Virus record (IMG/VR): IMGVR_UViG_3300014205_000003
Coordinates: 32,001 to 96,000 of that record
DNA length: 64,000 bases
Reading direction: 5' to 3' (one strand)
Origin: a virus
Taxonomy: Duplodnaviria; Caudoviricetes
In this document: positions 2,340 through 52,510 of the stretch, piece after piece
How the letters are laid out: every line of letters begins with the position of its first letter
How positions within the stretch are numbered: the first letter of the stretch is position 1
The notes under the pieces: generated by a model
What the model was told of the DNA's origin: nothing
What the model saw: the letters and a program-made list of their open reading frames with translations, nothing else
Databases searched by the model: none
Position numbers and translations under genes: made by a program

Positions 2340-2340
2340 C

Positions 2341-2913: not shown

Positions 2914-3144
2914 ATGAATATCCAACTACAAGCCTTTTATGCCGGATACATGAATAAGGATGCCAACTCAACTACAGAGAGTCCTACTGTGGATACTCCT
3001 GTAGCCAAGGTTGATCCTGTAGATCCTTCTGCAGAAAAGGGAATGGCAATCTCTACTAATTCTACTCCTACAGGGTTTGGTAAGGTGTTGAAGCAGAACA
3101 AGTCGATTTCTGTTCCTGAGAACAAGACTTCTGGAAACACCTAA
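2914..3144 (+). CDS. Small protein with N-terminal motif
   Basis: MNIQLQAFYAGYMNKDA; AAGGA RBS. Confidence 0.8.
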   Translation: MNIQLQAFYAGYMNKDANSTTESPTVDTPVAKVDPVDPSAEKGMAISTNSTPTGFGKVLKQNKSISVPENKTSGNT

Positions 3145-3353
3145 TGGATAAGCTGGCAGCATTCTTTGCAGGATACATGCACAAGTGTGCGGCTCTTCCA
3201 GCTGTGTTGCCGCCTTCTCCAATAACTGCTGATCCTGCGACAACCTACAAGACTCCTAGGACTAAGGGAACTCCTCAGCCAGGACAAGTTGTACAGAACA
3301 GTCCACTTCCTACGACTCCTTCAAATGTTATTCAGGAAGGTCCTTCGAAATGA
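3144..3353 (+). CDS. Small Pro-rich protein with N-terminal motif
   Basis: MDKLAAFFAGYMHKCA; coupled start/stop. Confidence 0.75.
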   Translation: MDKLAAFFAGYMHKCAALPAVLPPSPITADPATTYKTPRTKGTPQPGQVVQNSPLPTTPSNVIQEGPSK

Positions 3354-4327
3354 CAAAGCTTCAGACTCTTATTTATCTTCAAGGCTACCTGAGCAAGGAA
3401 GCTTTCGACTTCAATCCTTTTGGCGATCGCAAGGGGCGTGCACAAGATGCTAAGGCAAATGCTCGTACTGCTAAGATCAATGCAGCTGAAGCTAAGTCGA
3501 ATCGTCAGAGCTACTTGACTGCTAATGATCTAGGGCTTCAAGATGCTTTAGCTAATCGTGCAACAAATAAAGGTGTGTATGGTCAGATGACTGCAGCGGC
3601 AAATGCTAAAGCTGCTCAGACGCCTGCACCGACTCCTGCTGCTTCTCCAGAGCCTATGCAAGATCCTGCGATTACTCGAGCACAGCAAGTAGCTGCCGCT
3701 AAGAAGATGTCTCCCTATATGCGCGGAAGCACAATGCCTCGGGCTCAACAGCTTAATCAAGCTGCTCCAACTGTTGCACAAGCAACTCCTACAGCTACTC
3801 CTAAGACTGTTGTTGATCCTAATCCGATGAATACAGGAAATGTAGGCGAGAAGCAACGCACAGCACTTTTACAAGAAGAACAACCAAACATGAATCGGTT
3901 AGCTATTCAAACAAAAGCACCTGCAATGCCTCAGTATCCTAGGAAAAATGTTGTTCCTACCTCGCCTAGACCTACGAGAGCTCAAGCGGCGGCACTGAAG
4001 GGTGAGGTAGCTAGTATTAAAGCAGCGCAGACAGCCCAAACACAACAACCTGCAGCAACTCCTTCGTTTAGACCTGTTGCAGCTGTTCCCCAAGGACGTG
4101 CGGCGTATACAGCAAGTAACAAAGATGATATGGGTCAAATTAGAGCAGGTACTGCTACAATGAATCCCGAATGGCTAAAAAGACCGTCTGGGGATTTTTC
4201 AAATAGTCAAAAGCGTCGAGATCTGATTAGAAATCAGCTGGTTGCTTTGCAAAGAGGGAAACGGACTCCAGATATTAACCAAGTTGCAAAAAATACGGGT
4301 GTTAACCTGCTTCTTCCGGCACTATAA
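3350..4327 (+). CDS. A/Q/P/T-rich protein with variant N-terminal motif
   Basis: MTKLQTLIYLQGYLSKEA; coupled start/stop. Confidence 0.8.
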   Translation: MTKLQTLIYLQGYLSKEAFDFNPFGDRKGRAQDAKANARTAKINAAEAKSNRQSYLTANDLGLQDALANRATNKGVYGQMTAAANAKAAQTPAPTPAASPEPMQDPAITRAQQVAAAKKMSPYMRGSTMPRAQQLNQAAPTVAQATPTATPKTVVDPNPMNTGNVGEKQRTALLQEEQPNMNRLAIQTKAPAMPQYPRKNVVPTSPRPTRAQAAALKGEVASIKAAQTAQTQQPAATPSFRPVAAVPQGRAAYTASNKDDMGQIRAGTATMNPEWLKRPSGDFSNSQKRRDLIRNQLVALQRGKRTPDINQVAKNTGVNLLLPAL

Positions 4328-5271
4328 TGACATCTCTCTCACATCTCCTAGAGAAAGACGCAGCTCCTGTTGCGGGTCGAGGTCCATTGAAGACCGTCCT
4401 GCGACAAGCTGTTGATCATCCAGACAATCACGCTGTCTCTGAAGACCAGTTGATTGACCTGCATGACTATCCACGCCATCGCCAAGACATCTTCGACAAA
4501 ACCCTCAAAGGTGTCGAAGCCGCCTTCCCAAAAGCCAATACTAAACATACGTTGACAGTAACTGATCTGCACTACGATGGTCCTGATCACTACTCCAAAG
4601 AAGACTACAAGAACGCGATTCTTGAACGACGTTCGATGACTCGCAAGCTTGTAGGAAAGTACGTCCTTACAGACAACGCAACAGGTAAAGTGATTTCGAC
4701 TAGTGGTCGTAAAACCATAATGAACGTTCCTTACTTGACAGATCAAGGGACGTTTTTGCGTAACGGCACAGAATCTGTGATACCTAGGCAGCTTAGGCTT
4801 CAACCAGGAGTCTATACGCATATGACTTCTGATGGATATCCAGAAGCACAGTTCAACGTAAAGCCCGGAACGGGAAGTGGCTTTCGTACTTATCTAGATC
4901 CTGAGACGTCTGTCTTCTATATGACTACACGCGGACGCAAAATTCCCCTTTATCCCCTGATGCAAGCCCTAGGAGTCGATGACAGATCTTTGCAGGCTAC
5001 TTGGGGAGATGAGATCTTCAAGGCCAATCAGGAGATGCGTACGAGTTCTCATGCTGCTCGCTGGCTGAACGAAATGAATACTAAGCTTGCTCCGAAGGTT
5101 GTAGATGTTCCTGAAGTGGAAGAACAGGATGTGAATCCTGGCGACGAAGAACTGCCTACTTCCAATTATCAGGAGACACCTGACGATGAACTCACAGATC
5201 TTACAGTTGGAGAAGCTGATCGATTACCTTCTACCGTTTCTGGAGATCAAGGAATCCTCGAACAACCCTAA
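4327..5271 (+). CDS. rpoB: DNA-directed RNA polymerase beta subunit, N-terminal piece
   Basis: [30 protein letters not shown] matches RpoB [43 protein letters not shown]; acidic C-terminal tail. Confidence 0.9.
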   Translation: [314 protein letters not shown]

Positions 5272-5587
5272 AGCTGTTGGAGACAACGGCAAGGCTCGAG
5301 GAATCCTTCAGATACATCAGATCTTTGTTGACGACGTCAATCGAATATATGAAAGCAACTTCACTTGGGATGACTGCTGGAGCAAGAGTCTCTCCGAGCA
5401 AATAGTTAAGCTGTATCTTGTCCATTATGGTCAACGCTATATGGACAAGGAGAAGCAAGACTTAACGATCGACGTACTCGCTAGACTACATCAGGGTGGA
5501 CCAGATGGATATAAGCACACTTCTACAGTTCCTTACTGGCACGCAGTCAATCAAATCATTCGACATTCAGAAATAACGAACATGTAA
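5186..5587 (+). CDS. Lysozyme-like (destabilase/lytic transglycosylase-like) protein
   Basis: KESSNNPKAVGDNGKARGILQIH and ARLHQGGP..GY...YW, typical lysozyme-fold motifs. Confidence 0.7.
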   Translation: MNSQILQLEKLIDYLLPFLEIKESSNNPKAVGDNGKARGILQIHQIFVDDVNRIYESNFTWDDCWSKSLSEQIVKLYLVHYGQRYMDKEKQDLTIDVLARLHQGGPDGYKHTSTVPYWHAVNQIIRHSEITNM

Positions 5588-5608
5588 AAGTGCACATCTG
5601 TGCGTTTT
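5586..5608. repeat. Dispersed palindrome YGCACA-NN-TGTGCR
   Basis: aaaagtgcacatctgtgcgtttt; one of 9 copies found. Confidence 0.85.
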
Positions 5609-5799
5609 CTGGAGGATGCGTGTCACAGCTCTGGCAGAAAGCTCAAGTATACGAAGCACATGCTCATGGTGACGCAGAGATCGCAAGAATTATAGTGATT
5701 AATCGACAGTACGGTTTAGAGACGTTCAGTTGGGAAGTTTTGTTGAAGAGATATCAAGAGAGTCTTGTCACCTTGTTGCAGGGGCAGTGTAAGAACTAA
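5590..5799 (+). pseudogene. Possible remnant of a glycosyltransferase C-terminus
   Basis: RQYGLETFSWEVLLKRYQE resembles a GT4 C-terminal helix; no convincing start. Confidence 0.25.
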
Positions 5800-7055
5800 T
5801 GAGCATTTGTACGAATCTCTTGCAGGATGTAAATGCAGGATATCAAGTTGCAAGAAATATGGATAGACTGTATCCTTGTGTAGATCCTATTCAGCGTCTA
5901 CAGGAAATGCATCCTGTCATTGTAGACTACGGAAGTAACTTTGGGGCTTTCTCTCTTACACTCGCTCAGATGTTTCCTAACGCTACAGTCTTCTCTATTG
6001 AGAGTGGGGAGATGCAGTATAATCCTGATCCGAGGTTTATAACCTCTAAGGGAGTAAGCTATCAAACGCAGAAAAAGGCTGAAAGAGGTTTAACCAACTT
6101 AGAGATCGGCCAGACTCACCTTACTTGTGACTTCTTCGAGCGTATGCGCAGATCCAACTGTCATGTAAGTGTTCATTTGATGATGAGCTTCATTCACTGG
6201 TTGGATGTGAAGAACTACACCGACTTCAGAAACCTGATTGAGAATCTCGTCCTTACATCTAGGGTTGTAATCTTGGAGTTGCCCTGTAAGAATGTGGATC
6301 AGTACAATCGAGCTGTAATCGACAACTGGTATGAAGGCGTAGAGACACCTGCGGAACTTCTCAAGAAGGTAAACAGAGATACAAAGCTAAACTTCAAGTT
6401 GATTCAAGTACGTCTGGCTGCGGCCTGCAGTCGTCCAATCTTTGTACTAGAAAACACACAAGCAGTTGTCTGCGGACGTTCTCCAGAAGGCTTGAAGTAT
6501 ATACTCACAGAGCAGGACAAGAAAGAGCCTTTAAACGAGTTGAGAAGACTGCCTTGGACAAAGACAAGTGTCAGTACAGTTGCTACAGATATACTAGAAG
6601 CCTCGTTCAATGGTAAGCCGGTTATCTGTAAGACGTTTAGAGATGTGCTGACTTGGCCCGATGGTGGACCTGTGGAGGAATCTACTGCAGTACGTCTGGA
6701 TGTACTTAGACATTTGAAAGGTGTTGCAGGTGTTCCTGAGTATCTTGCCTATGACTCTTACACAAAGCGGTTGTATACGAGTCATTGTGGTTGCAGGTTA
6801 ACTAAAGCGAATCTGCCTGCTGACTGGAAAGTACAACTTACAGATTTGTACAGTAGTTTGTGGAATTGTGGGGTTCTGATAAACGACTTCAAGTTAGAGA
6901 ATCTAACGGTTAGGGATAAAAGATTGTCCTTGGTAGACTTTGGGGCTGACGCTTTGATAGGGATACATTGCAGGACATCTACATATTTGCAGTATCGAGA
7001 GAGTGAAACTGCGGAGAATAGTATTGGGTGTTTGATTCGAGTCTTGTCCTTGTAG
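5799..7055 (+). CDS. SAM-dependent methyltransferase fused to a kinase-like domain (WbdD-like architecture)
   Basis: IVDYGSNFGAFS SAM motif I; VICK, NDFKLENL and LVDFG kinase motifs. Confidence 0.7.
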   Translation: MSICTNLLQDVNAGYQVARNMDRLYPCVDPIQRLQEMHPVIVDYGSNFGAFSLTLAQMFPNATVFSIESGEMQYNPDPRFITSKGVSYQTQKKAERGLTNLEIGQTHLTCDFFERMRRSNCHVSVHLMMSFIHWLDVKNYTDFRNLIENLVLTSRVVILELPCKNVDQYNRAVIDNWYEGVETPAELLKKVNRDTKLNFKLIQVRLAAACSRPIFVLENTQAVVCGRSPEGLKYILTEQDKKEPLNELRRLPWTKTSVSTVATDILEASFNGKPVICKTFRDVLTWPDGGPVEESTAVRLDVLRHLKGVAGVPEYLAYDSYTKRLYTSHCGCRLTKANLPADWKVQLTDLYSSLWNCGVLINDFKLENLTVRDKRLSLVDFGADALIGIHCRTSTYLQYRESETAENSIGCLIRVLSL

Positions 7056-7075
7056 TAGATGCGGTAAATTAGTAG

Positions 7076-7096
7076 AAGTGCACAGATGTGCGTTTT
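7076..7096. repeat. Dispersed palindrome copy
   Basis: aagtgcacagatgtgcgtttt. Confidence 0.85.
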
Positions 7097-7117
7097 CTCC
7101 TTTGAAAGGATATACAG

Positions 7118-7375
7118 ATGAGTCAACTTCAATTGCAGGCTTTCTACTGTGGCTATATGGACAAGAAGGCGGCTGATCCTGCTAATCAGCAAGTGCTGGC
7201 AACCAAGCTGCAAGAGGAACAGACGAAACCTAAAGCAGGTATGTGGGGCCAGTTGCCGAGTGTTGTTGGACAGAAAATCAAAGATATAACCCTAGGCAAA
7301 CAGACTACTCCTAGTCTTAATCAGCAGATTGCTCCAGTTAAGAACACTCAGAAAGACTTGATGTCGTCCCTGTAA
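7118..7375 (+). CDS. Small protein with N-terminal motif
   Basis: MSQLQLQAFYCGYMDKKA; AAAGGA RBS. Confidence 0.8.
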   Translation: MSQLQLQAFYCGYMDKKAADPANQQVLATKLQEEQTKPKAGMWGQLPSVVGQKIKDITLGKQTTPSLNQQIAPVKNTQKDLMSSL

Positions 7376-7382
7376 CCTTAAT

Positions 7383-7455
7383 GCACTACTGGTGTTCAAT
7401 GGTAGCACATGACCCTTCCAAGGTTATGGAATCAGTTCGAATCTGATGTAGTGCT
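7383..7455 (+). tRNA. tRNA-Gly (TCC)
   Basis: Acceptor stem gcactac/gtagtgc, D-arm gtgttcaatggtagcac, anticodon arm tgacc-cttccaa-ggtta, T-loop ttcgaat; U discriminator; CCA not directly adjacent. Confidence 0.9.
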
Positions 7456-7519
7456 CTCCACTTAACTCTTATGTCAAAAGAAGATACAAGTCACAAAGCA
7501 GATCAGACGGAGGTGTCGG

Positions 7520-7804
7520 ATGATTCCGAGCCCCCTCTCAACTCTAGTTCTCTATGGACTGTATTTACTTGTTGGTGCGAGCGAGTGGTCGCTCTGTGTC
7601 GTTCGTACAAGGGCAATAGCCTTGAATCATGTGCGGACAGCGGTTGTTATTGTCTTTATCGAAAACGCGCTTTCGCTTTGGGTACTCTCGAACTTTGTAA
7701 GAAGTAATGACTTTGGTCTAGCGTTTGCTTATTGCTTAGGTGGTTCAATCGGGGCGTATACAGTTTGTAAGAGTTCTGCGGGGAATAAGACAAATGACAA
7801 ATAA
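7520..7804 (+). CDS. Small membrane protein, DUF2179/DUF5698-like
   Basis: Three hydrophobic helices; VVRT, FIEN and AYCLGGSIGAY pattern. Confidence 0.6.
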   Translation: MIPSPLSTLVLYGLYLLVGASEWSLCVVRTRAIALNHVRTAVVIVFIENALSLWVLSNFVRSNDFGLAFAYCLGGSIGAYTVCKSSAGNKTNDK

Positions 7805-8366
7805 TCAACTGAACGCTTTCTTCACTGGCTACTTGCAGAAGTCTGATACAGACACTATGCAGAAGACTGCCAACAGTGTAGATATGCCTATTGGAGAGTT
7901 CTCCAAGATTCAACCTTGGGATCTGTACAAGCGCTTAGGCATTGCAGACAATACTGGACACGCTCCTCGAATAGAAGCTATCATTGCCAGTCGCAGAGAA
8001 CAAGGACAGCGGCTCAATGGAGATACCGCTAAGGCCTTTGAGTGTACTAAGCTCGCCAATGACTCTACAGATGCACGCAAGTATAGAGACTTCGTCGACA
8101 ACGACGGCAAGTACAACAAGTCAAAAGACACTGATGTAGATAACGAAAAAGCAGAGCTTGCTGCTGGACGTAAGGTAGAGAAGGAACATACGAGTAATCC
8201 TGAGATTGCTACTCGCATAGCGAAGGATCATCTCGTTGAATCCAAGGAAAGTCCTCTAGGATACTACAAGGGCTTGAGCATGCTGGAACGATTCATGGAC
8301 AAGCTCAAGCAGAAAGCACGTCCAACAGAAGCCATCAAAGAGTTCGATGAGGTTACTAAGAAATGA
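7794..8366 (+). CDS. Protein with N-terminal motif and DUF5661-like domain
   Basis: MTNNQLNAFFTGYLQKS; ELAAGRKVEKEHT..IAKDHL.E...YY.GL. Confidence 0.7.
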   Translation: MTNNQLNAFFTGYLQKSDTDTMQKTANSVDMPIGEFSKIQPWDLYKRLGIADNTGHAPRIEAIIASRREQGQRLNGDTAKAFECTKLANDSTDARKYRDFVDNDGKYNKSKDTDVDNEKAELAAGRKVEKEHTSNPEIATRIAKDHLVESKESPLGYYKGLSMLERFMDKLKQKARPTEAIKEFDEVTKK

Positions 8367-8944
8367 CTAGAGCTCAGCAGACAGCTTTCATGCATGGTTA
8401 TCTGGAGAAGTCTGGGAGCATTGTACAGAACGGTATTCGTTTCTTTAGTCGTGCAGGATTAGGTACATCTACACTTAAACCTAGTCAGTTTGAGTTCATA
8501 GAAAGATCCAAAAGCTGGAATCCTGTTAATAGGATGTTTCTAAAGGCTCTTAAAATGGCGGGTGGAGAAAAAGCTTTAGCAAAAATACGTGATGCATCTA
8601 TGCTTGAGGATATACAACCCGGAACAGGTCTTGCAGGAGTCGCGGCGACAGGCGGAAAAGTTGTTGCGTTGGCAGATGCAAAAGCTTTCACGCCAATGCA
8701 ACGACGATCTGTTATAGCACACGAGGCATTTCACGCCAACAATCCGCAGATAGGTAAATATGAGTTACTAGCTCGTCTGTATGGAGGGTATAAATCCCAG
8801 AAGAGTAGCAGTCTGTTCTCCAGACTGAAAGCAAGTGCAGACGAAGGGAGAGATTATATATCTTCCTTCAAGAATCCAGAGTTTGCAAAGCATTATCCTA
8901 AATCTCCTTTTCAGAACGAGACGGTTAGACGTCTTTTTGTGTAA
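8363..8944 (+). CDS. Protein with N-terminal motif and HExxH zinc-metalloprotease-like motif
   Basis: MTRAQQTAFMHGYLEKSG; VIAHEAFHA followed by E. Confidence 0.65.
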   Translation: MTRAQQTAFMHGYLEKSGSIVQNGIRFFSRAGLGTSTLKPSQFEFIERSKSWNPVNRMFLKALKMAGGEKALAKIRDASMLEDIQPGTGLAGVAATGGKVVALADAKAFTPMQRRSVIAHEAFHANNPQIGKYELLARLYGGYKSQKSSSLFSRLKASADEGRDYISSFKNPEFAKHYPKSPFQNETVRRLFV

Positions 8945-8970
8945 CACTAGAGACCTTATAGGACACCCTT

Positions 8971-11900
8971 ATGCCCGATGATCTCAAAACACCCATCGTT
9001 GAACCAACTCCTAACTACATCAAGTCCTACTTCGAGAAAATGGAGCTCGATCCTGAATCTGTCCAGTCAACACTCGGTCGTCCGCATACTCATGCGACAG
9101 CCGATGCGATCCTCGACGCCACCTCCAAAGTCCTCAAGCTCTCCCGCCGAGAAGTAGATCCAGACGACAGAGACTCTCTGGAGTTTCAAACTGTCCACGA
9201 TGCTTCCGACTTCCTTCCAGACAAAGTACGTATGGACCAAGGTGGAATATTGCGGAAAGCTCTGTGGAAGCTTACAAACAAGAACGGAGACTTCTCTAAG
9301 GTTCCTGCAGGACTCTTGGACAAACACAATGACAACCTGTTCAACGTCAGTGGTTTAAGCCAAGGCATTGAAGAAACGTCAAATTTCGAGATGTATGATC
9401 AGAACACTCGAGTTCATCGAATGGGTGAAGGCGCTCTTCCTAGCATTGATGCCATTCCTTTGGAAGCACGTGCAGTCTCTCCAAGTTACTTAGGTTTAAT
9501 AGATTGCGTCCGCACCCCCGAAAGTTTGAAGGTAGGTGTTGACCTCAAATTTGCGCGTAATGTGAAGAAGGGTCCTAACAACCTCGTCTATACCAAGATG
9601 CTGGATAAAGATGGGAAAGAGGTTTGGGTATCTTCTAGAGATTTACCTCGGTCGATCGTTATGTTTCCAGACTCTGGAGATAAAAACGATAAGTTCGTGC
9701 CTGCTATTGTTAGAGGACGTACTTTGGAGTATGTGGATAGGAAAACTGTAAATTACACGCTTCCTTCTGGAGATGACATGTTCTCAGAGGGCGGTAATCT
9801 TACTCCTAGTGTGTCTGGTGTAAAAGGTATGCGCTTGTTGCTTGCAGGCAAATATCCTGCGGCAGCACTGTCTATTACAGGACGTGAAGCTCCACTAGTA
9901 CAGACAATGTCTTCTGATGGAACTCCTACGTCCGATCGTATAGGAAAACACTTGGGGCCTTCCTATTCGTCTATTGAGGGTACTGTTACTAAGGTTACTC
10001 CTACAGAGATCTGGATCAAAGATGCTAAGGGTAAGATTGAAAAGAAAGATCTGTACAATGATCATCCGTACATGCGTAAATCCTATCTGCACAACACTCC
10101 TGAAGTAGAAGTCGGGCAGATGGTTAAAGCTGGAGACATTCTAGCTTCCAGCAACTTTACAGACTCTAAGGGTAATGCGGCCTTAGGTGCAAACGTACGT
10201 ATGGCTTACATGCCGCACGATGGTTTGACCTTTGAGGATTCCTCAATCATATCAGAGTCTTTGGCTAAGCGCATGACTTCGTTACATATGTACAACGAAG
10301 ATATTGACACAGATGACGCTACTCGCTTGGATAAGAAGACCTTCATGCAGATGTTCCCTGGAAAGTACTCTAAGGAACAACTGGCTAAGCTGGATGCCAA
10401 AGGCATGGTATTGCCGGGAGTAGTCCTCAATAGTGGCGATCCTATGTTCTTAGGAATTAAGGAAACTCCTCCGGGTCCTGGTAATATGGGACGTGGCTCT
10501 GTTCGACAGGTTGTCAAGAACTGGGAATACGACACTCCCGGAACTGTTGCGTACGCAGCTAAGACTAAGGGAGGCTTTACTGCCTTTGTAAAGACTCAGG
10601 AACCTTTTCAAGAGGGTGGAAAGATTGCTACTCCATATGGAAGCAAGTCAGTAGTTGCTAGAATCTATCCCGACGATCAGATGCCTAGGGACAATCAAGG
10701 ACGTCCTGTAGAGTGGATCATGAGTCCTTTTGGCGTTCAAAGCAGAACGAATCCAGCACTTATTCCTGCAGGAGCTTTAGGTAAGATTGCTGCCAAGACA
10801 GGTATTCCTTACAACCTTAGAGGCTTCAATCCCGGCGAGGTTAAGAAATTTGCAGACGAAGAGCTTGCTAAACATAACATGACCGATAAAGAAGACGTGT
10901 ACGATCCTGTGCGCAAAGTAACAATTCCAGGCATCTATGTTGGAAACGTTTACGCCTACAAGATGCAGCAAACTGCTGAGAATAAAGGACATGCACGTTC
11001 TGTAGGTACGTATAGTGCTGAGGATGTGCCCCTTAAGGGTGGTTCTAGCGGAAGTAAGCATGTGGGCGACATGGAGTGGTTTGGTTTACTTTCTCACAAT
11101 GCAATTGCGAATATCTATGATATGAAGCAAGTTAAAGGTCGTCGCAATGATGACTACTGGCGTCAGGTTAAGCTTGGACAGACTCCTAGTGTTCCCGGAA
11201 CTCCTGTAGTCTATTCCAAGTTCAAAGACTTGCTCAAAGCTGCTGGTGTAAATCTGTCGGAAGGTAAGGACACCACGTCTATCTTTGGTATGACTAACGC
11301 ACAAGCGGAGAAGTTGACAGGTAATCGAGAACTTGACTCTGCTTCTACCTTCAACGCGAATACCTTCAAGCCAATTCCTGGAGGTCTCTTCGATTCTGAT
11401 AAGACAGGTTCGTTGGGGGATGGTAGAGGCTGGAGCTACTACAGTCTTCCAGAACCTTTGCCCAATCCTGTAATGGAAGAGCCTATTCGAGCTTTGCTTG
11501 GAGTTACTAAGAAAGACTTCGACAAAGTGATCTCTGGAGAACTTCCTCTCAACGGTAAGTATGGTGGACAGGCTATTACAGAATACCTGAAGCGTGTCAA
11601 TCTGGATGATGTGATGAACACAGCTTCAGAGACCATTCGCAGTGGCAGTAAGTCTAAGCGAGATGCCGCTGTTAAGGTTTATGGCTACGCCAGTGCCATG
11701 AAGAAGCAGGGTGTACGCCCTGAAGAGTTCATGATGACTCGTGTACCTGTCCTGCCTCCTGCTTGGCGTCCTATTACTGCTAGTGGAGCTCGTACGATGG
11801 TTGCTGATCAGAACTATACGTATCGAGCATTGTTCGACAGTATTCAGGACTACAAGGATTCCATGAGTCTTCCTGAGGATCTTCGACAGACAGCTCGACA

Positions 11901-12663
11901 GAACATGTACAACAGCTACAGAAGTCTCGTAGGCACTACTGATCCTACACAGGAGAAGCTGGTACAGAAGAACGTTGGCGGTTTGCTGGACAGTCTGCTT
12001 GGCAAATCCTCGCCAAAACTGGGATTCTTTCAAAGGCGTGTAATTGGTTCTAACATTGACATGGGTGGTTTAGGGGTTGTTACCTTGAACTCCTCTCTCA
12101 AATTGAACGAAATAGGTTTACCAGAAGCGACTGTCTGGGACTTGTACAGTCCTTTCATTGTTCGTAAGCTTGTTCAGCAGGGTATGCCAGCTATGCAGGC
12201 AGCTGAAGCAATCAAGAGTAAGACAGAACAAGCAGGTAAAGCTCTACAGGGTATTATGAAAGAGCGACCTGTACTGATGAATCGTGCGCCTACCAACCAC
12301 AAGTACAGCATTATGGCTGTGTGGCCTAGAATGACTAAGGGACATTCTGTACAGGTTAATCCTACCCTTATGGGTCCCTACACAATGGACCTGGACGGCG
12401 ACGTTGCAAGTTATTCTGTTCCAGTGAGTAATAACGCTGTCAAGGAAGCAATTGCGCGTATGCTTCCTGAGAAGAATCTGCTGTCTGTTTCAAATGACAA
12501 GCCGATGTATGTTCCGAGTCAGGAGTTTGCTATGGGTGGCTGGACGATGTCCAAGGAGCCTAACAGGGACAAGCCTGTACGTTTCAACACTTGGCAGGAT
12601 GCTGTGAAGGCTTACAAGACTGGGCAGATTAAGGTAGATACTCCTGTAATTGTAGGACGTTGA
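8971..12663 (+). CDS. rpoB-rpoC: RNA polymerase fusion: beta (middle and C-terminus) joined to beta' N-terminal part carrying the catalytic DxDGD
   Basis: beta motifs RTPES, AYMPHDGLTFEDS, GGKIATPYGSK, SPFGVQSRTN, HARSVG, VGDME; then beta' motifs TFKPIPGGLF, VPVLPPAWRP, PVLMNRAPT, YTMDLDGD, PSQEFAMG. Confidence 0.95.
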   Translation: MPDDLKTPIVEPTPNYIKSYFEKMELDPESVQSTLGRPHTHATADAILDATSKVLKLSRREVDPDDRDSLEFQTVHDASDFLPDKVRMDQGGILRKALWKLTNKNGDFSKVPAGLLDKHNDNLFNVSGLSQGIEETSNFEMYDQNTRVHRMGEGALPSIDAIPLEARAVSPSYLGLIDCVRTPESLKVGVDLKFARNVKKGPNNLVYTKMLDKDGKEVWVSSRDLPRSIVMFPDSGDKNDKFVPAIVRGRTLEYVDRKTVNYTLPSGDDMFSEGGNLTPSVSGVKGMRLLLAGKYPAAALSITGREAPLVQTMSSDGTPTSDRIGKHLGPSYSSIEGTVTKVTPTEIWIKDAKGKIEKKDLYNDHPYMRKSYLHNTPEVEVGQMVKAGDILASSNFTDSKGNAALGANVRMAYMPHDGLTFEDSSIISESLAKRMTSLHMYNEDIDTDDATRLDKKTFMQMFPGKYSKEQLAKLDAKGMVLPGVVLNSGDPMFLGIKETPPGPGNMGRGSVRQVVKNWEYDTPGTVAYAAKTKGGFTAFVKTQEPFQEGGKIATPYGSKSVVARIYPDDQMPRDNQGRPVEWIMSPFGVQSRTNPALIPAGALGKIAAKTGIPYNLRGFNPGEVKKFADEELAKHNMTDKEDVYDPVRKVTIPGIYVGNVYAYKMQQTAENKGHARSVGTYSAEDVPLKGGSSGSKHVGDMEWFGLLSHNAIANIYDMKQVKGRRNDDYWRQVKLGQTPSVPGTPVVYSKFKDLLKAAGVNLSEGKDTTSIFGMTNAQAEKLTGNRELDSASTFNANTFKPIPGGLFDSDKTGSLGDGRGWSYYSLPEPLPNPVMEEPIRALLGVTKKDFDKVISGELPLNGKYGGQAITEYLKRVNLDDVMNTASETIRSGSKSKRDAAVKVYGYASAMKKQGVRPEEFMMTRVPVLPPAWRPITASGARTMVADQNYTYRALFDSIQDYKDSMSLPEDLRQTARQNMYNSYRSLVGTTDPTQEKLVQKNVGGLLDSLLGKSSPKLGFFQRRVIGSNIDMGGLGVVTLNSSLKLNEIGLPEATVWDLYSPFIVRKLVQQGMPAMQAAEAIKSKTEQAGKALQGIMKERPVLMNRAPTNHKYSIMAVWPRMTKGHSVQVNPTLMGPYTMDLDGDVASYSVPVSNNAVKEAIARMLPEKNLLSVSNDKPMYVPSQEFAMGGWTMSKEPNRDKPVRFNTWQDAVKAYKTGQIKVDTPVIVGR

Positions 12664-12684
12664 TAATCTCTTATGAGGTTGTCG

Positions 12685-12789
12685 ATGACTTCATTTGATA
12701 TTCCTAGATCTGTTCAGCATGATACGTATTCCTGTGGAGCTCATGCTGTAAGAAGTCTGTTGTGGTACTTCAAGCGTCCTGTTCATTAG
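12685..12789 (+). pseudogene. C39-like peptidase, N-terminal fragment interrupted by the TnpB element
   Basis: Hand translation MTSFDIPRSVQHDTYSCGAHAVRSLLWYFKRPVH*, with the Q-x5-CG catalytic motif. Confidence 0.65.
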
Positions 12790-12821
12790 TTGTCGAAATA
12801 GTTAATAAGCTGTAAGAAGCA

Positions 12822-12850
12822 TTGACAACTTTGACTTGGTGGTCTATATT
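12822..12850 (+). promoter_or_regulatory. Sigma70-type promoter of tnpB (probably leaderless transcript)
   Basis: TTGACA (12822-27), 17 nt, TATATT (12845-50); ATG at 12857. Confidence 0.75.
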
Positions 12851-12856
12851 AAGATT

Positions 12857-13900
12857 ATGATCAGAACCGTAAATATAGACCTAAATCATCTGACGCAACA
12901 TAAGCGGTCTAGCATTGCTGCGTTACTTACTGCATATAGAAGTGCTGTAAACTTCTACTGCAAAAGCCTATGGAACACTCCAGGGAAACTAGATGCAGTT
13001 ACAGAGAAACGTCTTGTAAACTCTCGTCTGACTGCCCGATATCGTTGCACTGCTCTCAAGACAGCTCTCGCAATTGTTATTACAACCCGCAGAGCTCTGA
13101 AGGTAACTAAGAAGTACGGATCAATTCCAGTTCTTACAGGTATGGTTTCTCTGGATCAGAAGTTCGTTACAGTTGAAAAAGGTAAGCAAAGCTTCGACTA
13201 CGTACTCAAACTCTCCTCGCTGTCTTCTGGAAACCGGATCACAATTCCTTTCAACTCTCACAAGAGACTTCAGTATTGGCTATCGAAGCCAGGAGCGGTC
13301 CTGAAACAAGCTTGTCAGATCTCTGAAGACAGGATGAAACTCTATGTAGAGTTTCCAGACGAAGCTCCTCGCACAACAGGACGTGTCCTAGGTGTAGACG
13401 TCGGAATAAACAAACTGCTGACTACTTCGGACAATGTCTTCTTAGGAACAACTTGGAAAGCTCTGTCTCTGAAGATCAGACGCTGCAAAGTTGGAAGTGC
13501 TGGAAGACAACGAGCATACAGAGAACGTGATCAGTTTATTAATCGTACTGTCAATCTTCTTCCTTGGTCAGAACTTCGAGCAATCGGAATTGAAGACCTC
13601 AAAGGTATGAAGACAGGTAAAAGTAAGAATCGAGGAAAAGCATTTCGTAAAGCACTGGCACCATGGCTGTACCGTCGACTGCTCAACCGCATAGAGGTTA
13701 AAGCAGAGGAGAACCGTGTTCGTCCTCTGCGTGTACCTGCGGCCAATAGTTCACGGGAATGTCCACGTTGTGGAATGGTGTCGAAGCTGAATCGCACAGG
13801 AGAGAACTTTGTTTGTATTCGTTGCGGCCACGCTGCGGATGCCGACTACGTCGGAGCAAGCAATGTTCTCGCTCGTACTATGCAGATCCTAGGGAGCTAG
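12857..13900 (+). CDS. tnpB: TnpB/Cas12f-like RNA-guided endonuclease (copy 1)
   Basis: RuvC residues in GVDVG, IEDL and DADY; CxxC...CxxC Zn finger; 3' hairpin ctagggagctagagtcccctag. Confidence 0.9.
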   Translation: MIRTVNIDLNHLTQHKRSSIAALLTAYRSAVNFYCKSLWNTPGKLDAVTEKRLVNSRLTARYRCTALKTALAIVITTRRALKVTKKYGSIPVLTGMVSLDQKFVTVEKGKQSFDYVLKLSSLSSGNRITIPFNSHKRLQYWLSKPGAVLKQACQISEDRMKLYVEFPDEAPRTTGRVLGVDVGINKLLTTSDNVFLGTTWKALSLKIRRCKVGSAGRQRAYRERDQFINRTVNLLPWSELRAIGIEDLKGMKTGKSKNRGKAFRKALAPWLYRRLLNRIEVKAEENRVRPLRVPAANSSRECPRCGMVSKLNRTGENFVCIRCGHAADADYVGASNVLARTMQILGS

Positions 13901-13949
13901 AGTCCCCTAGTGCCAAAAGCTGGAATTGTTAGCGCAAGTTAACTATTAC

Positions 13950-14227
13950 GGTAACTCTCTCCCAAGCCCTCTGAATGTCTAGACTACTCCTAAGAACAAT
14001 TCCTGTATGCTTCAAACCACTTGCTGTAAGTGCTCTAAGCAGACACACCCACCTTATCCTTCTTCCGTCGTGCAACATAGCTTCTTCATAGCCCTCCAAT
14101 ATGGTAATAGGACGCTAAATTAGTCTATGTTGTTGATTCAAGCAATGGCAGGGATACAGAGTTCAGTCACTTAGAGTGGTTTCGGTACGAATACGATCAC
14201 ATACGAGTGTTTGCGATAAAGAATTAA
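13950..14227. pseudogene. Remainder of the C39 peptidase: middle part inverted (- strand), C-terminus on + strand
   Basis: Minus strand 14104->13950 reads PYWRAMKKLCCTTEEG then (frameshift) LLRALTASGLKH; plus strand reads DAKLVYVVDSSNG...IKN*. Confidence 0.55.
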
Positions 14228-14229
14228 CT

Positions 14230-15156
14230 ATGACCGAAGCAGACCTTCAAAAACTTGCGGCAATCTCTTGGGGAAAACTTCTGCACGAAGGTTCAGAAGG
14301 GCAGAATGCTTCTAGAGATGCTATCGCAAAACTCTTGCAGATCATGCGCAAGCATACGCCTACAACTTTTCTTCCTCACAAATATCGCTTGCCTAATCTG
14401 TTTAACAAAGCTCCTGACTTCTTCTTTCCTGGTTGGTCAGAGCGAAAAGTTCTAGAGCATCCTGTAACGCAGAAAGTCCTTCAAGCGACTGTAGGTAAAG
14501 TTCCAGGTATGTCCTTGCCTATCTCTAATCTGCCAAACAGGCTTGAGCAGGTTTCTGGACTACTGTCAGATGCCGCTAAGCAGTATACGGCTCCTCTCAG
14601 TAGAGGTGTTAACAAAGCTGTATCTCTTCTTCCTCGTAAGACTCAAAAGATTACACCTCTCAAGGTGGACGATTTGAAGATTACCGACGATGTATCGAAG
14701 CTGGACAAGACAGGTTCAGACGCTTGCAGTCTGTTGCTTCAGAAGCTCGCAGAGAAAAACGATGAGTGGACTGCAGGCGATGTAGCTCTAACAGGCGCGG
14801 CTGGAAGTCTAGCCGCTCCTATCTATGCAGGGTCTGAATATGCTACAATGAAGCACTTGGCCAAGAAGCAACCTGTTGCTCAGGGTTTGATGAATCCTAA
14901 CAAGTGGGCACATGTAATTGCTAAGTTGATCAAAGCCCAGAAAGATGTTGAAGTTTCTGACAAGACACGTGCAACGTATATAAAACAGTGGAACAATGCG
15001 GCTAAGAGTACTTGGAGAAATGGTAGAGACGTTATGCTTACTGCAGAAGGTGTAAATCCTAAGCTGGTTAAAGGCGGTAAGTACAGTTTGATGATTCTTC
15101 CTGCAGTACTTACTGCTTTAGCCATTCAGAGTAAGCATAATGACAAGTTAAGTTAA
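14230..15156 (+). CDS. Hypothetical putative virion protein (KxA motifs, hydrophobic segments)
   Basis: ATG at 14230: MTEADLQKLAA; C-terminal hydrophobic helix. Confidence 0.75.
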   Translation: MTEADLQKLAAISWGKLLHEGSEGQNASRDAIAKLLQIMRKHTPTTFLPHKYRLPNLFNKAPDFFFPGWSERKVLEHPVTQKVLQATVGKVPGMSLPISNLPNRLEQVSGLLSDAAKQYTAPLSRGVNKAVSLLPRKTQKITPLKVDDLKITDDVSKLDKTGSDACSLLLQKLAEKNDEWTAGDVALTGAAGSLAAPIYAGSEYATMKHLAKKQPVAQGLMNPNKWAHVIAKLIKAQKDVEVSDKTRATYIKQWNNAAKSTWRNGRDVMLTAEGVNPKLVKGGKYSLMILPAVLTALAIQSKHNDKLS

Positions 15157-15179
15157 TAAGTAGAACAAAGGAAACGCAC

Positions 15180-15857
15180 ATGTCAGTTCACACGCAACGT
15201 CTTATCCAGCTTCTGCAAAAAGAAGGCTTCGTTCCTCCGACTCCTCCCCCGCAGGGTATGCCTCCTGGCGCTCCTCCTGCTGATCCGAATGCTGGAATGC
15301 CTCCCCAAGGTGATCCTGCTGCCGCTGGTGCACCTGTTGATCCCGCGACAGGTATGCCAATGGACCCTGCAATGGCTCAGCAGATGCCAGCAGATCCTGC
15401 CGCAATGCCTCCTCCGGGTGATCCTGCAGCTATGGGTGGTGCACCTGTTGATCCTGCTACAGGTATGCCGATGGACCCTAACGCTATGCCTGCTGATCCC
15501 AATGCTCAGCCGCCAGTTCCTACTCTTGCAGAGATTCCTGTGGATCAGTTCATGGCGATGATGCAGGACATGATGACTGCTGGTAAAGCTCCTGAGGGTC
15601 CTGCGGATGACGGCAAGAAAGAATCTGTTGCCGATCTGAGCAAGCGCATGGAGAATCTTGAAGGTATGCTGAGTCAGCTCCTGCAGGCTTCGGGTATGAT
15701 GCCTCCTGAGCAGGGCGCGGCTCCTATGGCTCCTCCGATGCCTCCTCCTGACGCTACGCAGAAGACTGCCGCTCTTGCTGAGTTGAAGAACAAGAACGCT
15801 GTCAAGAACGCAACTCTGGCAGGCAAGCTTCGTAAACTCGGTGGCGTGGTTCGCTAA
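15180..15857 (+). CDS. Pro/Met/Ala-rich low-complexity protein
   Basis: GAPVDPATGMPMDP repeated twice; AAAGGA RBS; QKTAA. Confidence 0.8.
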   Translation: MSVHTQRLIQLLQKEGFVPPTPPPQGMPPGAPPADPNAGMPPQGDPAAAGAPVDPATGMPMDPAMAQQMPADPAAMPPPGDPAAMGGAPVDPATGMPMDPNAMPADPNAQPPVPTLAEIPVDQFMAMMQDMMTAGKAPEGPADDGKKESVADLSKRMENLEGMLSQLLQASGMMPPEQGAAPMAPPMPPPDATQKTAALAELKNKNAVKNATLAGKLRKLGGVVR

Positions 15858-15879
15858 AAAGTGCACATCTGTGCGTTTT
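15857..15879. repeat. Dispersed palindrome copy
   Basis: Identical to the 5586 copy, including the downstream ctggag. Confidence 0.85.
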
Positions 15880-15892
15880 CTGGAGATTGTAG

Positions 15893-16570
15893 ATGCCTGA
15901 TCAAGATCATCAGAGTCGTGTTGAGCGCATGAAAAACTCTTTGAAGAGTCTGGCTACTCAAGCTGGAAACACTCTCAAAGAACATCCAGAATACGTTACA
16001 GCGCCTGCTGGAGCTCTTGCCGGGGGTTACTTAGCTAACAAGGCTACAGGTAATCCTTTGATGACTGCTGGAAGTGCCGCTGGTGGTGCAGGACTGGCTT
16101 ATGCTCTAACAGACGTCTTGAAACATCAGACTCCTGGAGTACTTGCTAAAGACTTGAAGCCTGAGAGTACTTCTAATGCTGTCGAGGACTTTGCAGAGTC
16201 TCCAATAATGACGACTGTTGGAACAGCGGCATCTGCTCTACCTTCTGCGGCTCTTACAGGAGCTCAACTTACAGGTCTGTCTGCTATTCCTGGATATGGT
16301 CTCTATCGGCTTAAAGAACTTCTCAGACGTAAGGGTGTTTTTGACAAAGTAGTAGATGAAACAGGTAAAGCAAAGAAACCCACAGGTGTTTTAGGTGGGA
16401 TTAAAGGCTTCGTTACAGGCAATGAACACATTTGGAACCCTATTCAGGCTAGTGGGATAAACCCTATTGCTCAGAAAGCTCACAGAGTTGTTAAAGCTTC
16501 TGCAATTCCTGAAGGCGTTAAGAAGGTCTTGCGTGCGGTCATAGGTTCTGGTATCATTAAGGCTAAATAA
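15893..16570 (+). CDS. Glycine-zipper-containing hypothetical protein
   Basis: APAGALAGGYLA and AGSAAGGAGLAYAL; GGAG RBS. Confidence 0.75.
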   Translation: MPDQDHQSRVERMKNSLKSLATQAGNTLKEHPEYVTAPAGALAGGYLANKATGNPLMTAGSAAGGAGLAYALTDVLKHQTPGVLAKDLKPESTSNAVEDFAESPIMTTVGTAASALPSAALTGAQLTGLSAIPGYGLYRLKELLRRKGVFDKVVDETGKAKKPTGVLGGIKGFVTGNEHIWNPIQASGINPIAQKAHRVVKASAIPEGVKKVLRAVIGSGIIKAK

Positions 16571-16572
16571 GC

Positions 16573-18405
16573 ATGCCTGCTCAAACAGTAGGTCAGTACC
16601 TAATTCAGAATATCCTTCCAGCAGACGTCTACGACGGCTCTCCGCTGGACAAAAAGGGTATTGCTAAAGTCTTCTCCCAGTTGGCTGAAAAGTATCCAGA
16701 CAAGTACGTAGATATTCTGGATGACTACAACCAAGCTGCTGGAGACGCTGTAGCACGTTATGGTGGCGTTGCTTCTATTGGTCTCTCAGACTTAGACATT
16801 CCAGAACCTGTTAAGATTCATCGTGATGCTCTCCGTCTGAAAGTCAAAGCTATTCAGCAGAGTCCTACGCTTACAGGTAAACAGAAGAATGACGCTGTAG
16901 TCAAGTTGATGCTCTCAGAAGCAGACAACATTCGCAAGATGACTACAGAAGAGTCCATGAAAAATGGCTCACACTTCGGTCTTTCAGCTTCCAAAGGCTT
17001 CAGAGGAAATCCGTTGCAGACTACGCAGATGATTTATGGAGATCTTCTCGTAGCCGACCATAAAGATCGGCCAATCCCTGTTGCAGGTCTGCATGGTTAT
17101 GGCGAAGGTGTAACCCCTGCTGAGTACTTCGCAGGCTCGTATGGTGCTCGTAAAGGACAGGTCTCAGTACAGATTGCTACTGCTAAGTCTGGATTCTTAG
17201 GTAAAGAAATATCCTACGCAGCCCAACGTCAAGTAATTACCGGAGACGACTGCGGAGCTAAGAATGTAGGCATAACAGTCAATGGAGATAATCCTGAGAT
17301 CATAGGAAGTGTTCTAGCCAAGACTACAAAAGGTATCCCCGCAGGAACAGTTATTACCAAGAACAATCTTCCAGACCTTGAAGGTACTAAAGTTCGTATC
17401 CGTTCTCTCAGTACTTGTCAGATGCCTAACGGAGTTTGTAAGATGTGCGCAGGCAAGAGAGAACAGGGAAAGTTCCCCGACACAGGGTCTTACGTTGGAA
17501 TCACGTCTGCCAGAAGTTTGTCAGAACCCTTTACGCAATCGGCACTTAGTTACAAGCATACTGGAGGAGTTGCAAAGGGTAAAATTGATCGTGGTCTTCA
17601 AGGCTTTGCAGAGGTTGAGCAGTTCTTCAATGCTCCTGAGAACTTCAAAGGTGTTGCTCTGCAGTCTACCAAGGATGGGATTGTTCAGAACATCATCAAA
17701 GCTCCTCAAGGGGGCTCGTACGTATTCATTGACGGTCAGAAGCACTACGCTGATCCTGACATGACATTGACAGTTAAGAAAGGTGATTCTGTAGAAGCTG
17801 GAGATGTTCTTTCCGATGGAACTCCTCATCCAGGCCTTGTAGCTCACTATAAGGGATTGGGAGCTGGACGCGCTTATTTCATTGATAAGCTTGGCCAGAT
17901 CTTAGAGAAGAATGGTATTCCTGGGCACATGAGACACGTCGATTCTATGGCTAAAGCCTTCTACGACAGAGTACGTATAACTAATCCAGAAGGCTTCATG
18001 GGATACAACCCTGACGACGTTGTTCCCTATACAGAGATCCAAAAGGATTATAGCCCACGGAAAGGTACTATCTCTGTTGCTCCTAAACAAGCTGTCAATC
18101 AATACTTAGAACGTCCTGTTCTGCACTACACCATTGGAACACGTGTTACTCCCAATGTGATCAAAGAGATGAACGAAGAAGGTGTTCCTGCAATTGAAGT
18201 CCATAAAGACCTTCCAGACTTCGAACCTGAAGTCTCAAGGATTATGGATATCCAAGCATCTGATCCAGATTGGCAGACACAGCTTGCGGGCTTCAATCTA
18301 AGGAAGAGTTTGCTGAAGTCTGTTACACACGGCTCCACAAGTACTACAGCTGGTACTTCCTATGTTCCCAAGTTAGTCAATAGTACGGTTCTGCAAAATG
18401 CTTAA
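16573..18405 (+). CDS. rpoC: RNA polymerase beta' C-terminal piece (RpoC2-like)
   Basis: Bridge helix EYFAGSYGARKG..TAKSGFL, DDCG, RSLSTC..VCKMCAG Zn site, trigger loop SLSEPFTQSALSYKHTGG. Confidence 0.95.
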   Translation: MPAQTVGQYLIQNILPADVYDGSPLDKKGIAKVFSQLAEKYPDKYVDILDDYNQAAGDAVARYGGVASIGLSDLDIPEPVKIHRDALRLKVKAIQQSPTLTGKQKNDAVVKLMLSEADNIRKMTTEESMKNGSHFGLSASKGFRGNPLQTTQMIYGDLLVADHKDRPIPVAGLHGYGEGVTPAEYFAGSYGARKGQVSVQIATAKSGFLGKEISYAAQRQVITGDDCGAKNVGITVNGDNPEIIGSVLAKTTKGIPAGTVITKNNLPDLEGTKVRIRSLSTCQMPNGVCKMCAGKREQGKFPDTGSYVGITSARSLSEPFTQSALSYKHTGGVAKGKIDRGLQGFAEVEQFFNAPENFKGVALQSTKDGIVQNIIKAPQGGSYVFIDGQKHYADPDMTLTVKKGDSVEAGDVLSDGTPHPGLVAHYKGLGAGRAYFIDKLGQILEKNGIPGHMRHVDSMAKAFYDRVRITNPEGFMGYNPDDVVPYTEIQKDYSPRKGTISVAPKQAVNQYLERPVLHYTIGTRVTPNVIKEMNEEGVPAIEVHKDLPDFEPEVSRIMDIQASDPDWQTQLAGFNLRKSLLKSVTHGSTSTTAGTSYVPKLVNSTVLQNA

Positions 18406-19460
18406 CCACTTTTCACGGAAGGGGGACTATAAGCTCCCCTCTGTCGAATATTAATGGCCGCATTGAAGTCTGCGTCCATCGTCATTCCACACGCGGTACA
18501 ACAGAACGACTCTCCCTTACGGGAAAGTTTGTCTACCGCTCCGCACAAGCTGCATGTCTGCGAAGTATAGGCAGGAGGTACTTTCGTATACTTAATGCCT
18601 AATTCTTCGCTGACCATCTGAAGCCGACTCAAAACTTTTGAGTAGCTCCAGCGTTGCAGCTTGTTCATGAACTGTTTGCGAATCTTACCTTTAGACCCCT
18701 TCTTCACATCCTTCAAATCTTCTACTACAAGCTCTCGAACGTTCTGCAAGTCGAGAAGATTAACAGACTGATTGATCTTCTGATCACGTTCTGTAAGAGC
18801 TCGCTTGAAAGCTTTAGATCCTTGCTTCTTCCTAGCAATTTTCTTATACACATCTTCCATACCTACGTCGTAGATTTGCTGATCTGACGAAGCAAGAAGC
18901 TTCTTGTACCCGCAATCAAGACCTAAGGAAGATCCTATAGAAGAGCTAGGAGTAGTCTTCTCGAAGAAGACATCGAGGAACCACTTTCCGTTTACGTTTC
19001 TTAAACAGGAGCCTTTCAGTAGTTTCCAGCCATTCTGACTGAACTTGAGAAAGTGTTTATGTTTACGTGAAGGGATCTTAAGGATGAGCTTGTTCCCAAG
19101 ACAGTATATTTTTATCCAGAAGTCGAAGGAGTTAGTTTCGGCGTAAAAGGTGCAGATATTTTCACTTAAATCAAACGTCTTCTGTTTGATCACCGGCTTG
19201 GAAGCTTTCTTGCCTTTGTTCTTTCGCGTCCTTGTTCTGTTAAGCACGCCAAAAGCCTGAATAAAGAGACAGTGACAAATTCTATGAGAGAGCCATGTTT
19301 GAACAGGTTGTAGCTTGTCAAATTTTCTTGCTGACGGATATTGCCAAAAGTGATCTACGTAGACGTTGAGAACACGTAGAGCTTCATCACTGAACGTATT
19401 AAGCTTCTGGAGCTTTCCAGCATTAGCAAAATTCAATGACATTTGAACTCGACGAATCAC
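18402..19460 (-). CDS. tnpB: TnpB/Cas12f-like endonuclease (copy 2)
   Basis: GLDCG, VEDL, DADFNAA; CSLC/CTAC Zn finger. Confidence 0.9.
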   Translation of the reverse strand: MIRRVQMSLNFANAGKLQKLNTFSDEALRVLNVYVDHFWQYPSARKFDKLQPVQTWLSHRICHCLFIQAFGVLNRTRTRKNKGKKASKPVIKQKTFDLSENICTFYAETNSFDFWIKIYCLGNKLILKIPSRKHKHFLKFSQNGWKLLKGSCLRNVNGKWFLDVFFEKTTPSSSIGSSLGLDCGYKKLLASSDQQIYDVGMEDVYKKIARKKQGSKAFKRALTERDQKINQSVNLLDLQNVRELVVEDLKDVKKGSKGKIRKQFMNKLQRWSYSKVLSRLQMVSEELGIKYTKVPPAYTSQTCSLCGAVDKLSRKGESFCCTACGMTMDADFNAAINIRQRGAYSPPSVKSG

Positions 19461-52349: not shown

Positions 52350-52510
52350 GACTACGACGATACTTAGACCGCAAGAAGATTACCAACGCTGAGGCTGCAG
52401 CTGTTCCGAGATATCTGCTGGAATGGCTTCGAGCTCACAACAGACCTCTGTATATTGAACTGAAGCAACTGGAAGATACCTCTCCAGCTACTAATGGTAA
52501 AACAGCATGA
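52346..52510 (+). CDS. Small hypothetical protein (54 aa)
   Basis: Hand translation MRLRRYLDRKK...; ATGA overlaps at both ends. Confidence 0.55.
   Translation: MRLRRYLDRKKITNAEAAAVPRYLLEWLRAHNRPLYIELKQLEDTSPATNGKTA

Follow-up and report, generated by a model that had tools for sequence, protein, structure and literature searches.

A probable three-piece RNA polymerase with a fused beta/beta-prime chain in a large uncultured phage

Do three genes that lie apart in a phage genome encode one RNA polymerase, and what kind of enzyme would they make? The question is raised by a stretch of 64,000 nucleotides (the window; bases 32001-96000 of IMG/VR virus record IMGVR_UViG_3300014205_000003, Duplodnaviria, Caudoviricetes), in which an earlier note, made from the DNA letters, had placed a beta N-terminal piece at 4327..5271, a beta/beta-prime fusion at 8971..12663 and a beta-prime C-terminal piece at 16573..18405. 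All three open reading frames (ORFs) are present at these coordinates on the plus strand in the ORF list; their products are called P0002, P0001 and P0003, respectively, other P numbers denote relatives and L numbers denote IMG/VR loci. The virus record, of 188,069 bp, has a completeness rating of 100% and direct terminal repeats. In whole-genome searches the beta barrel, the beta-prime barrel and the beta-prime C-terminal domain each matched once, which amounts to one polymerase set, and the three genes are the only RNA polymerase of this 188-kb uncultured phage. We consider it likely that they encode a single phage-made, bacterial-type multisubunit enzyme, whose reassembly, sigma use and packaging we infer.

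The polymerase chains and their relatives

P0001 (8971..12663, plus strand) is 1230 residues long and is encoded in one uninterrupted frame. It had been read as running from the middle of beta through the beta C-terminus into beta-prime, and this fusion is borne out by Pfam matches to Rpb2_6 (residues 334-683, E 2.5e-33), Rpb1_1 (909-954) and Rpb1_2 (1090-1162, E 4.8e-17), and by sequence matches in the PDB to bacterial beta at 65-492 and bacterial beta-prime at 860-1228 (E ~1e-45). The beta part contains the fork, the catalytic barrel with FEDS (421-424) and both lysines, the flap and the C-terminal clamp part; the beta-prime part contains the clamp helices and the catalytic barrel with TMDLDGD (1138-1144). 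Residue mapping indicates that the equivalents of beta E813/D814, K1065 and K1073 (E. coli numbering) are retained, and the Asp triad of TMDLDGD is invariant in alignments of 20 and of 40 relatives. The beta-side barrel of a bacterial-type two-barrel polymerase is present, as is the beta-prime barrel together with the bridge helix and trigger loop, which P0003 supplies.

The join lies at 11224..11391 (plus strand), at about residues 762-770 of P0001. The beta motif KDLLKAAGVNL (752-762) is followed by ~35 residues homologous to the beta-prime N-terminus and by TFKPIPGGLF (798-807), after which ~44 residues of the zinc ribbon are absent; these two motifs, and YTMDLDGD at 1137-1144, had been quoted from the translation and are all found in P0001. 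Alignment with Salmonella RpoB and RpoC indicates that beta-prime resumes from approximately its residue 15-20, and it confirms that the N-terminal Cys4 zinc-binding domain has been deleted, as previously noted. P0001 has one Cys in total, and the domain is likewise absent from five metagenomic relatives and from the fusion chains of two cultured phages, Arash (gp206) and D69. In an AlphaFold model of residues 31-1230 (mean predicted local distance difference test, pLDDT, 80.5) the pLDDT is 66-92 over the join, which is thus predicted to be structured, and the top Foldseek matches of the model are bacterial beta chains.

P0003 (16573..18405, plus strand; 610 residues) was assigned as the beta-prime C-terminal piece from Pfam Rpb1_5 (E 3e-20), PDB matches and residue mapping. 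The mapping places the bridge helix (178-221) and the trigger loop (303-338) in this chain, in agreement with the original assignment; P0003 also has a second zinc site with four Cys at 227, 282, 289 and 292, and is without the SI3 insert. In the PDB alignment the chain starts at approximately E. coli beta-prime 569, its residue 6 standing opposite E. coli 574, and the end of P0001 aligns opposite residue ~553 of the 625 of cyanobacterial gamma. The suggestion that the fusion chain ends near the RpoC1/RpoC2-like split therefore needs a qualification, in that the cut, at approximately E. coli 552/569, is near that split but not at it, falling 50-70 residues short of the end of gamma. P0003 is 28-33% identical to Arash gp216 and D69_0264. 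Many of its relatives (P0136-P0208) are 1100-1700 residues long, some with inteins and others with a long C-terminal extension. Single-chain forms of ~2050 residues, with beta and all of beta-prime (P0209-P0255), also exist and are 26-31% identical to P0003; P0016 (1997 residues), a further candidate for this form, is really a two-piece chain with an intein.

Rifampicin cluster I (9337..9432; P0001 residues 123-154) is substituted, and residue mapping gives F514G together with D516E, H526Q and S531H. Because the last three are the main resistance positions, the polymerase is probably insensitive to rifampicin.

A search with the join region returned more than 300 protein clusters, of which the best 120 nearly all have both PF00562 and PF00623 and are typically 1460-1490 residues long. 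An IMG/VR locus search with a single protein as query gave no match; an alignment-based search gave 235 contigs, so that at least 235 IMG/VR contigs encode a relative of the fusion chain, and 80 of these loci were fetched for comparison. In 80 of 80 a single frame takes in the whole of beta, N-terminus included, and the front of beta-prime; the one exception, L071, is broken at another point. A beta-prime C-terminal gene for ~620-650 residues follows 1-8 kb downstream wherever the downstream flank was fetched. The same fusion occurs in Salmonella phage Arash (gp206/gp216) and in Vibrio phages D69, D148 and D181. A join that is continuous across these contigs, protein clusters and cultured phages is not an assembly artefact. 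The clade comprises large phages of ~150-225 kb with Arash, D69, D148 and D181 as cultured members, and megablast of 25 kb of the present genome against the phage collection gave no match, leaving it without a nucleotide-level relative there. Since all 80 loci, Arash and D69 carry the two-piece form, this form is the clade norm and the three-piece form is a rare variant with an extra split. The claim of a distinct architecture is supported, with the caveat that the fusion is common to a large clade that includes cultured phages and that what is unusual in this phage is only the extra beta N-terminal cut.

The extra cut yields P0002 (4327..5271, plus strand; 314 residues), which carries the beta1 domain together with the initial portion of the beta2 lobe, approximately E. 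coli beta 35-229. That the beta N-terminus is a separate gene is confirmed by alignment of P0002 to residues 4-261 of Arash gp206 (BLASTP, E 5e-25), from residue 240 of which P0001 continues. P0002 has no Pfam match; it matches phrog_24349 (E 1e-8), and a profile built on this region of 24 unsplit relatives aligns with bacterial beta, first at 35-229 and next at 420-621. The cut sits in a variable linker that corresponds to residues 211-235 of the unsplit relative P0009 and maps to the point in the beta2 lobe at which E. coli beta-i4/SI1 is inserted, a site known as 'dispensable region I' (PMC2939025). The end tail of P0002 is 65 residues long, acidic (17 D/E versus 3 K/R) and free of Cys. At its other end P0002 bears an 11-residue motif with K-x-A, which is kept in relatives P0123 and P0127.

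A separate beta N-terminal gene could reflect a decaying or mis-assembled gene that was broken by insertion and leaves a non-working enzyme. Unrelated genes, amounting to approximately 3.7 kb, and three TnpB elements are indeed found in and around the polymerase genes, and the beta position equivalent to E. coli H1237, which is His in at least 90% of relatives, is Gln here. However, neither part has lost its long open frame or its clade-invariant residues, and the genome, which is complete and has terminal repeats, encodes no other polymerase. The same cut is also found in relatives that are 42-60% identical: P0005, P0008, P0031 and P0034 begin at the same linker as P0001, and the stand-alone beta N-terminal homologues P0123-P0128 (273-290 residues, 44-51% identity) have acidic tails too. 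Locus L089 repeats the arrangement: its beta N-terminal gene also stands alone, and other genes, among them a homologue of 7740..8366, fill at least the next 2.4 kb. We thus regard decay as very improbable; a beta N-terminus encoded by a gene of its own is a minority variant, which a few close relatives have in common. Split forms fall at three separate spots in a FastTree tree and need three changes, which hints that the same loop was cut repeatedly in the clade, although the count, taken from the FastTree tree only, is a soft one.

Alternatively, a split intein or trans-splicing might link the halves after translation and give a mature enzyme of two pieces. Inteins are certainly very common in the polymerase genes of the clade, many relatives having PF14528, PF14890 or Hint domains, and intein-bearing fusion chains reach 1800-2360 residues (P0004, P0005, P0008, P0015 and P0016; loci L006, L007, L046, L053 and L079). 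Homing endonucleases are frequent as well, and the D148 and D181 polymerase genes carry such an insert. Pfam, however, found no intein domain in the polymerase chains of the window, whose polymerase genes are free of inteins and homing endonucleases alike. The Cys-free acidic tail of P0002 and the start of P0001 (MPDDLK) lack an intein signature, with neither a C-fragment nor HN-Cys/Ser/Thr, and the intervening 3.7 kb consists of six ordinary ORFs. A split intein was rejected on these grounds, and joining after translation is the least credible of the alternatives considered here, so that three chains are retained in what follows.

Sigma use, assembly and packaging

No alpha gene had been seen in the window, and the absence extends to the whole 188-kb genome, in which neither PF01000 nor PF01193 had a match; omega (PF01192) gave no match in the same genome, and the positive controls matched in 14 of 14 genomes. 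Two candidates for a hidden subunit were rejected. The gene between the fusion and beta-prime C-terminal genes in 66 loci encodes a low-complexity protein that is not alpha-like, and an ~80-residue ORF upstream of the beta-prime C-terminal gene in many relatives has no homologue in this genome.

By profile and fold evidence, the gene at 52507..53223 (plus strand; 238 residues) is established as encoding a sigma-70-family factor with regions 2, 3 and 4, and the genome has no second gene of this kind. Its product matches phrog_351 (E 1.5e-8) and Sigma70_r3 (E 2.5e-5) and belongs to a family of 1154 representative proteins, whose profile matches SigA (E 1e-12) and, over nearly the full length, sigma-F (2e-12) in the PDB. 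Among 47 relatives, 39 have a Sigma70_r3 match and 13 an r4 match. The model has a pLDDT of 90 and its top Foldseek matches are all sigma chains. One orthologue is present in each of five out of five other fused-polymerase genomes; BLASTP gave no significant match to the sigma factors of Arash and D69. We presume that this protein is the promoter-specificity subunit of the three-piece polymerase.

In the clade standard, the whole of beta is fused to the beta-prime N-terminus and beta-prime is cut past its barrel, leaving both double-psi barrels in chain 1 and the bridge helix and trigger loop in chain 2. In the present phage, chain 1 has been cut again at the beta2-lobe loop, with 3.7 kb of other genes between the halves. 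In the mechanism proposed here, the three chains would reassemble non-covalently, the beta-prime C-terminal and beta N-terminal pieces docking on the fusion chain. The covalent beta/beta-prime tether, placed where the termini naturally meet, may replace the alpha dimer as assembly platform, and the phage sigma would direct the core to phage promoters. The enzyme would be made late with the virion proteins, packed in the head and delivered with the DNA, which would allow transcription to start independently of the host.

The proposal that the polymerase is carried in the virion is probably correct, judging by a cultured relative. In the mass spectrometry of Arash virions, gp206 gave 3516 spectra (rank 1) and gp216 gave 1210 (rank 5), and the sigma factor gp10 was detected (PMC10585845). 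In this phage, the polymerase genes have a portal gene on one side and a putative capsid gene, assigned from a weak match, on the other, and stand amid small proteins that share a leader. Packaging is the best reading because the Arash chains are abundant in virions and the genes stand in the virion block in every relative examined. An unpackaged enzyme could nonetheless serve the middle and late genes, with the host polymerase, perhaps redirected by sigma, transcribing the early ones. Such a division of labour would suit a genome with a single polymerase set and one sigma, a factor that could in principle serve the host core, and the presence of clearly non-structural enzymes in the Arash preparation makes co-purification possible. 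It is harder to reconcile with the location of the genes inside the virion-gene block in every relative examined, and with the spectral count of Arash gp206, the highest of all virion proteins. An enzyme expressed with late structural genes would, moreover, be of little use unless carried to the next cell. We therefore judge a purely intracellular enzyme unlikely and favour packaging.

Several points weigh against the enzyme as proposed here. Assembly, sigma dependence and independence of alpha we infer from the sequence, and the packaging evidence comes from a two-piece homologue rather than from a three-piece member. The Arash virion proteome also held ribonucleotide reductases and ligases, and its authors warn of co-purification (PMC10585845). 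The enzyme could still recruit alpha or omega from the host. The Gln at the H1237-equivalent position, already mentioned, departs from most relatives. Finally, the beta flap (10450..10510; P0001 residues ~494-513) has an 11-residue deletion and is modelled as a plain hairpin with a disordered tip. The flap-tip helix, on which sigma region 4 docks in bacteria, is thus apparently absent according to the model and residue mapping, so that sigma region 4 may bind in a way that departs from the bacterial model.

If the proposal is right, this would be the simplest known sigma-70-dependent multisubunit RNA polymerase, consisting of two to three polypeptides plus sigma, with no alpha, omega or beta-prime zinc ribbon, and it would show that such an enzyme can assemble without the universal alpha platform. 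The natural changes that appear to be tolerated are fusion at the beta/beta-prime termini, a cut after the beta-prime barrel and a cut at the beta-i4 loop. How an enzyme of ~240 kDa would be delivered from a capsid is a question that follows, and the cultured relatives Arash and Vibrio D69 make such questions directly testable. A compact, probably rifampicin-insensitive and sigma-programmable polymerase could also serve as an orthogonal transcription tool.

Neighbouring genes

The 3.7-kb block between the beta N-terminal and fusion genes (5272..8970, plus strand) holds six unrelated genes that are not parts of the enzyme. They include a lysozyme-like ORF at 5186..5587 (weak Pfam Destabilase match, E 1.2e-5) and, from the ORF list, a 418-residue ORF at 5799..7055, a small leader-bearing ORF at 7118..7375 and two more at 7740..8366 and 8363..8944. 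None of the ORFs of this block is found at the corresponding position in the 80 related loci.

The leader, LQAFYxGYMxKxA, stands on at least eight otherwise unrelated ORFs: those at 2025..2339, 2311..2898, 2914..3144, 3350..4327, 7118..7375 and 33828..34226, and two just upstream of the window. Within the first 80 residues of ORFs its core pattern turns up 11 times, against a single occurrence in the rest of the proteome. The start of P0002 is a weaker look-alike of this leader. A more ambitious scenario would join these elements, with a minimal sigma-dependent core in which the tether replaces alpha2, carried in the capsid in pieces that reassemble after ejection, the loop being cut repeatedly and the beta N-terminal piece packaged by means of its own capsid-targeting or cleavage leader related to LQAFYxGYMxKxA. 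We put this full combination forward only tentatively and consider it doubtful as a whole.

Directly after the fusion gene, at 12836..13900 (plus strand), lies a TnpB-like gene with a Cas12f-like TNB domain (PF07282, phrog_506). Further copies with PF07282 are found at 18402..19460 (minus strand), abutting the P0003 stop, and at 22025..23095 (plus strand); the PF07282 E-values of the three genes are 6e-15, 3e-19 and 4e-19. All three fall inside a 10-kb stretch, where each fills a gap flanked by conserved genes of the polymerase/virion block, and two abut polymerase 3' ends. There is no transposase gene among the ORFs examined around them, and no remnants of displaced polymerase gene ends were found beside them. 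At 12822-12850, overlapping the beginning of the first copy, is a near-consensus sigma-70 promoter (TTGACA-17-TATATT). In a promoter and terminator scan, counts were not above those in shuffled sequence.

Between the fusion and beta-prime C-terminal genes, 15180..15857 (plus strand) encodes P0131, a low-complexity protein rich in Pro, Ala, Met and Asp that has a homologue between both polymerase genes in 66 related loci. Among loci L004-L083, repeat proteins of this type have ~240 residues, a conserved N-terminus and a central helix. The ORFs at 14176..15156 and 15893..16570, which also lie between the polymerase genes, encode Gly/Ala-rich proteins with hydrophobic stretches and no family match; this pair may be membrane-active internal or ejection proteins. 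At 19805..21967 is a gene for a 720-residue protein without Pfam or PHROG match, which directly follows the beta-prime C-terminal gene in 60 of the 80 related loci; in the window, a TnpB-like gene stands between it and the P0003 gene. The long beta-prime C-terminal forms were considered as fusions to this downstream gene, but their extension is not homologous to it.

Comparison with known systems

The cut after the beta-prime barrel has a counterpart in the cyanobacterial and plastid gamma/beta-prime pair (RpoC1/RpoC2), although the phage cut falls earlier, by the 50-70 residues given above. Joined subunits occur in Helicobacter and Wolbachia, in which the beta C-terminus is linked to the beta-prime N-terminus, at the point where these termini come together in the enzyme, in full-length cellular subunits (~2,800-2,900 residues) that still work with alpha2 and omega. 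In the window, by contrast, the partner of beta is the front of beta-prime only (to ~552) without the zinc domain, the fusion chain lacks the beta N-terminus, and there is no gene for alpha or omega.

Among phages, the mReC group comprises large environmental tailed phages with bacterial-like beta and beta-prime, alignable to the cellular enzymes, that were selected by the motif NADxDGD (Weinheimer and Aylward 2020, PMC7481178). Their subunits are encoded by separate, adjacent, full-length genes, for example for 1011 and 904 residues, whereas those of the window are fused and split, and the window motif TMDLDGD would fail the NADxDGD filter. The phages phiKZ and AR9 have beta and beta-prime homologues without alpha or omega, both of them split, and one set is in the virion (PMC7598289). 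They share with the window a beta-prime cut after the catalytic barrel and a beta in N- and C-terminal parts, but they have two paralogous sets (virion and non-virion), no fusion and, in place of sigma, a gp68/gp226-type protein, and their sequences are far more divergent from bacterial ones (PMC7598289). With its single set, its fusion and its sigma-70-family factor, the window genome is distinct from phiKZ/AR9, as had been proposed. The description as bacteria-like also stands, the best solved matches being bacterial beta and beta-prime chains and the phage having a sigma-70-family factor.

The closest systems are Arash (gp206, 1525 residues, and gp216, 606 residues; OQ632216; PMC10585845) and D69, D148 and D181, which show the same join, the same loss of the zinc domain and the same cut after the barrel. 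In D69 the fusion chain and the beta-prime C-terminal chain are 0261 and 0264. The polymerase genes of Arash and D69 follow the portal gene, as in the window, the phages encode sigma factors, and their chains are 28-33% identical to those of the window. The window shares with Arash-like phages the join with zinc-domain loss and the separate downstream beta-prime C-terminal gene, but whole beta is not in its fusion chain: in the Arash/D69 type the beta N-terminus lies inside that chain, giving two pieces, whereas here it is encoded by a gene of its own, which lies 3.7 kb upstream. Because of this separate gene, we regard the window as a variant of the Arash-like family. In the Arash paper gp206 is labelled beta and gp216 beta-prime, and neither 'fused' nor 'fusion' appears in the text (PMC10585845); the label 'beta' that current records give to the fusion chain obscures the architecture. 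No paper describing a fusion of beta to the beta-prime N-terminal part was found in the literature searched, which covers few subscription journals. The fused phage polymerase design is thus widespread and essentially undescribed, and the three-piece form is what this genome adds to it.

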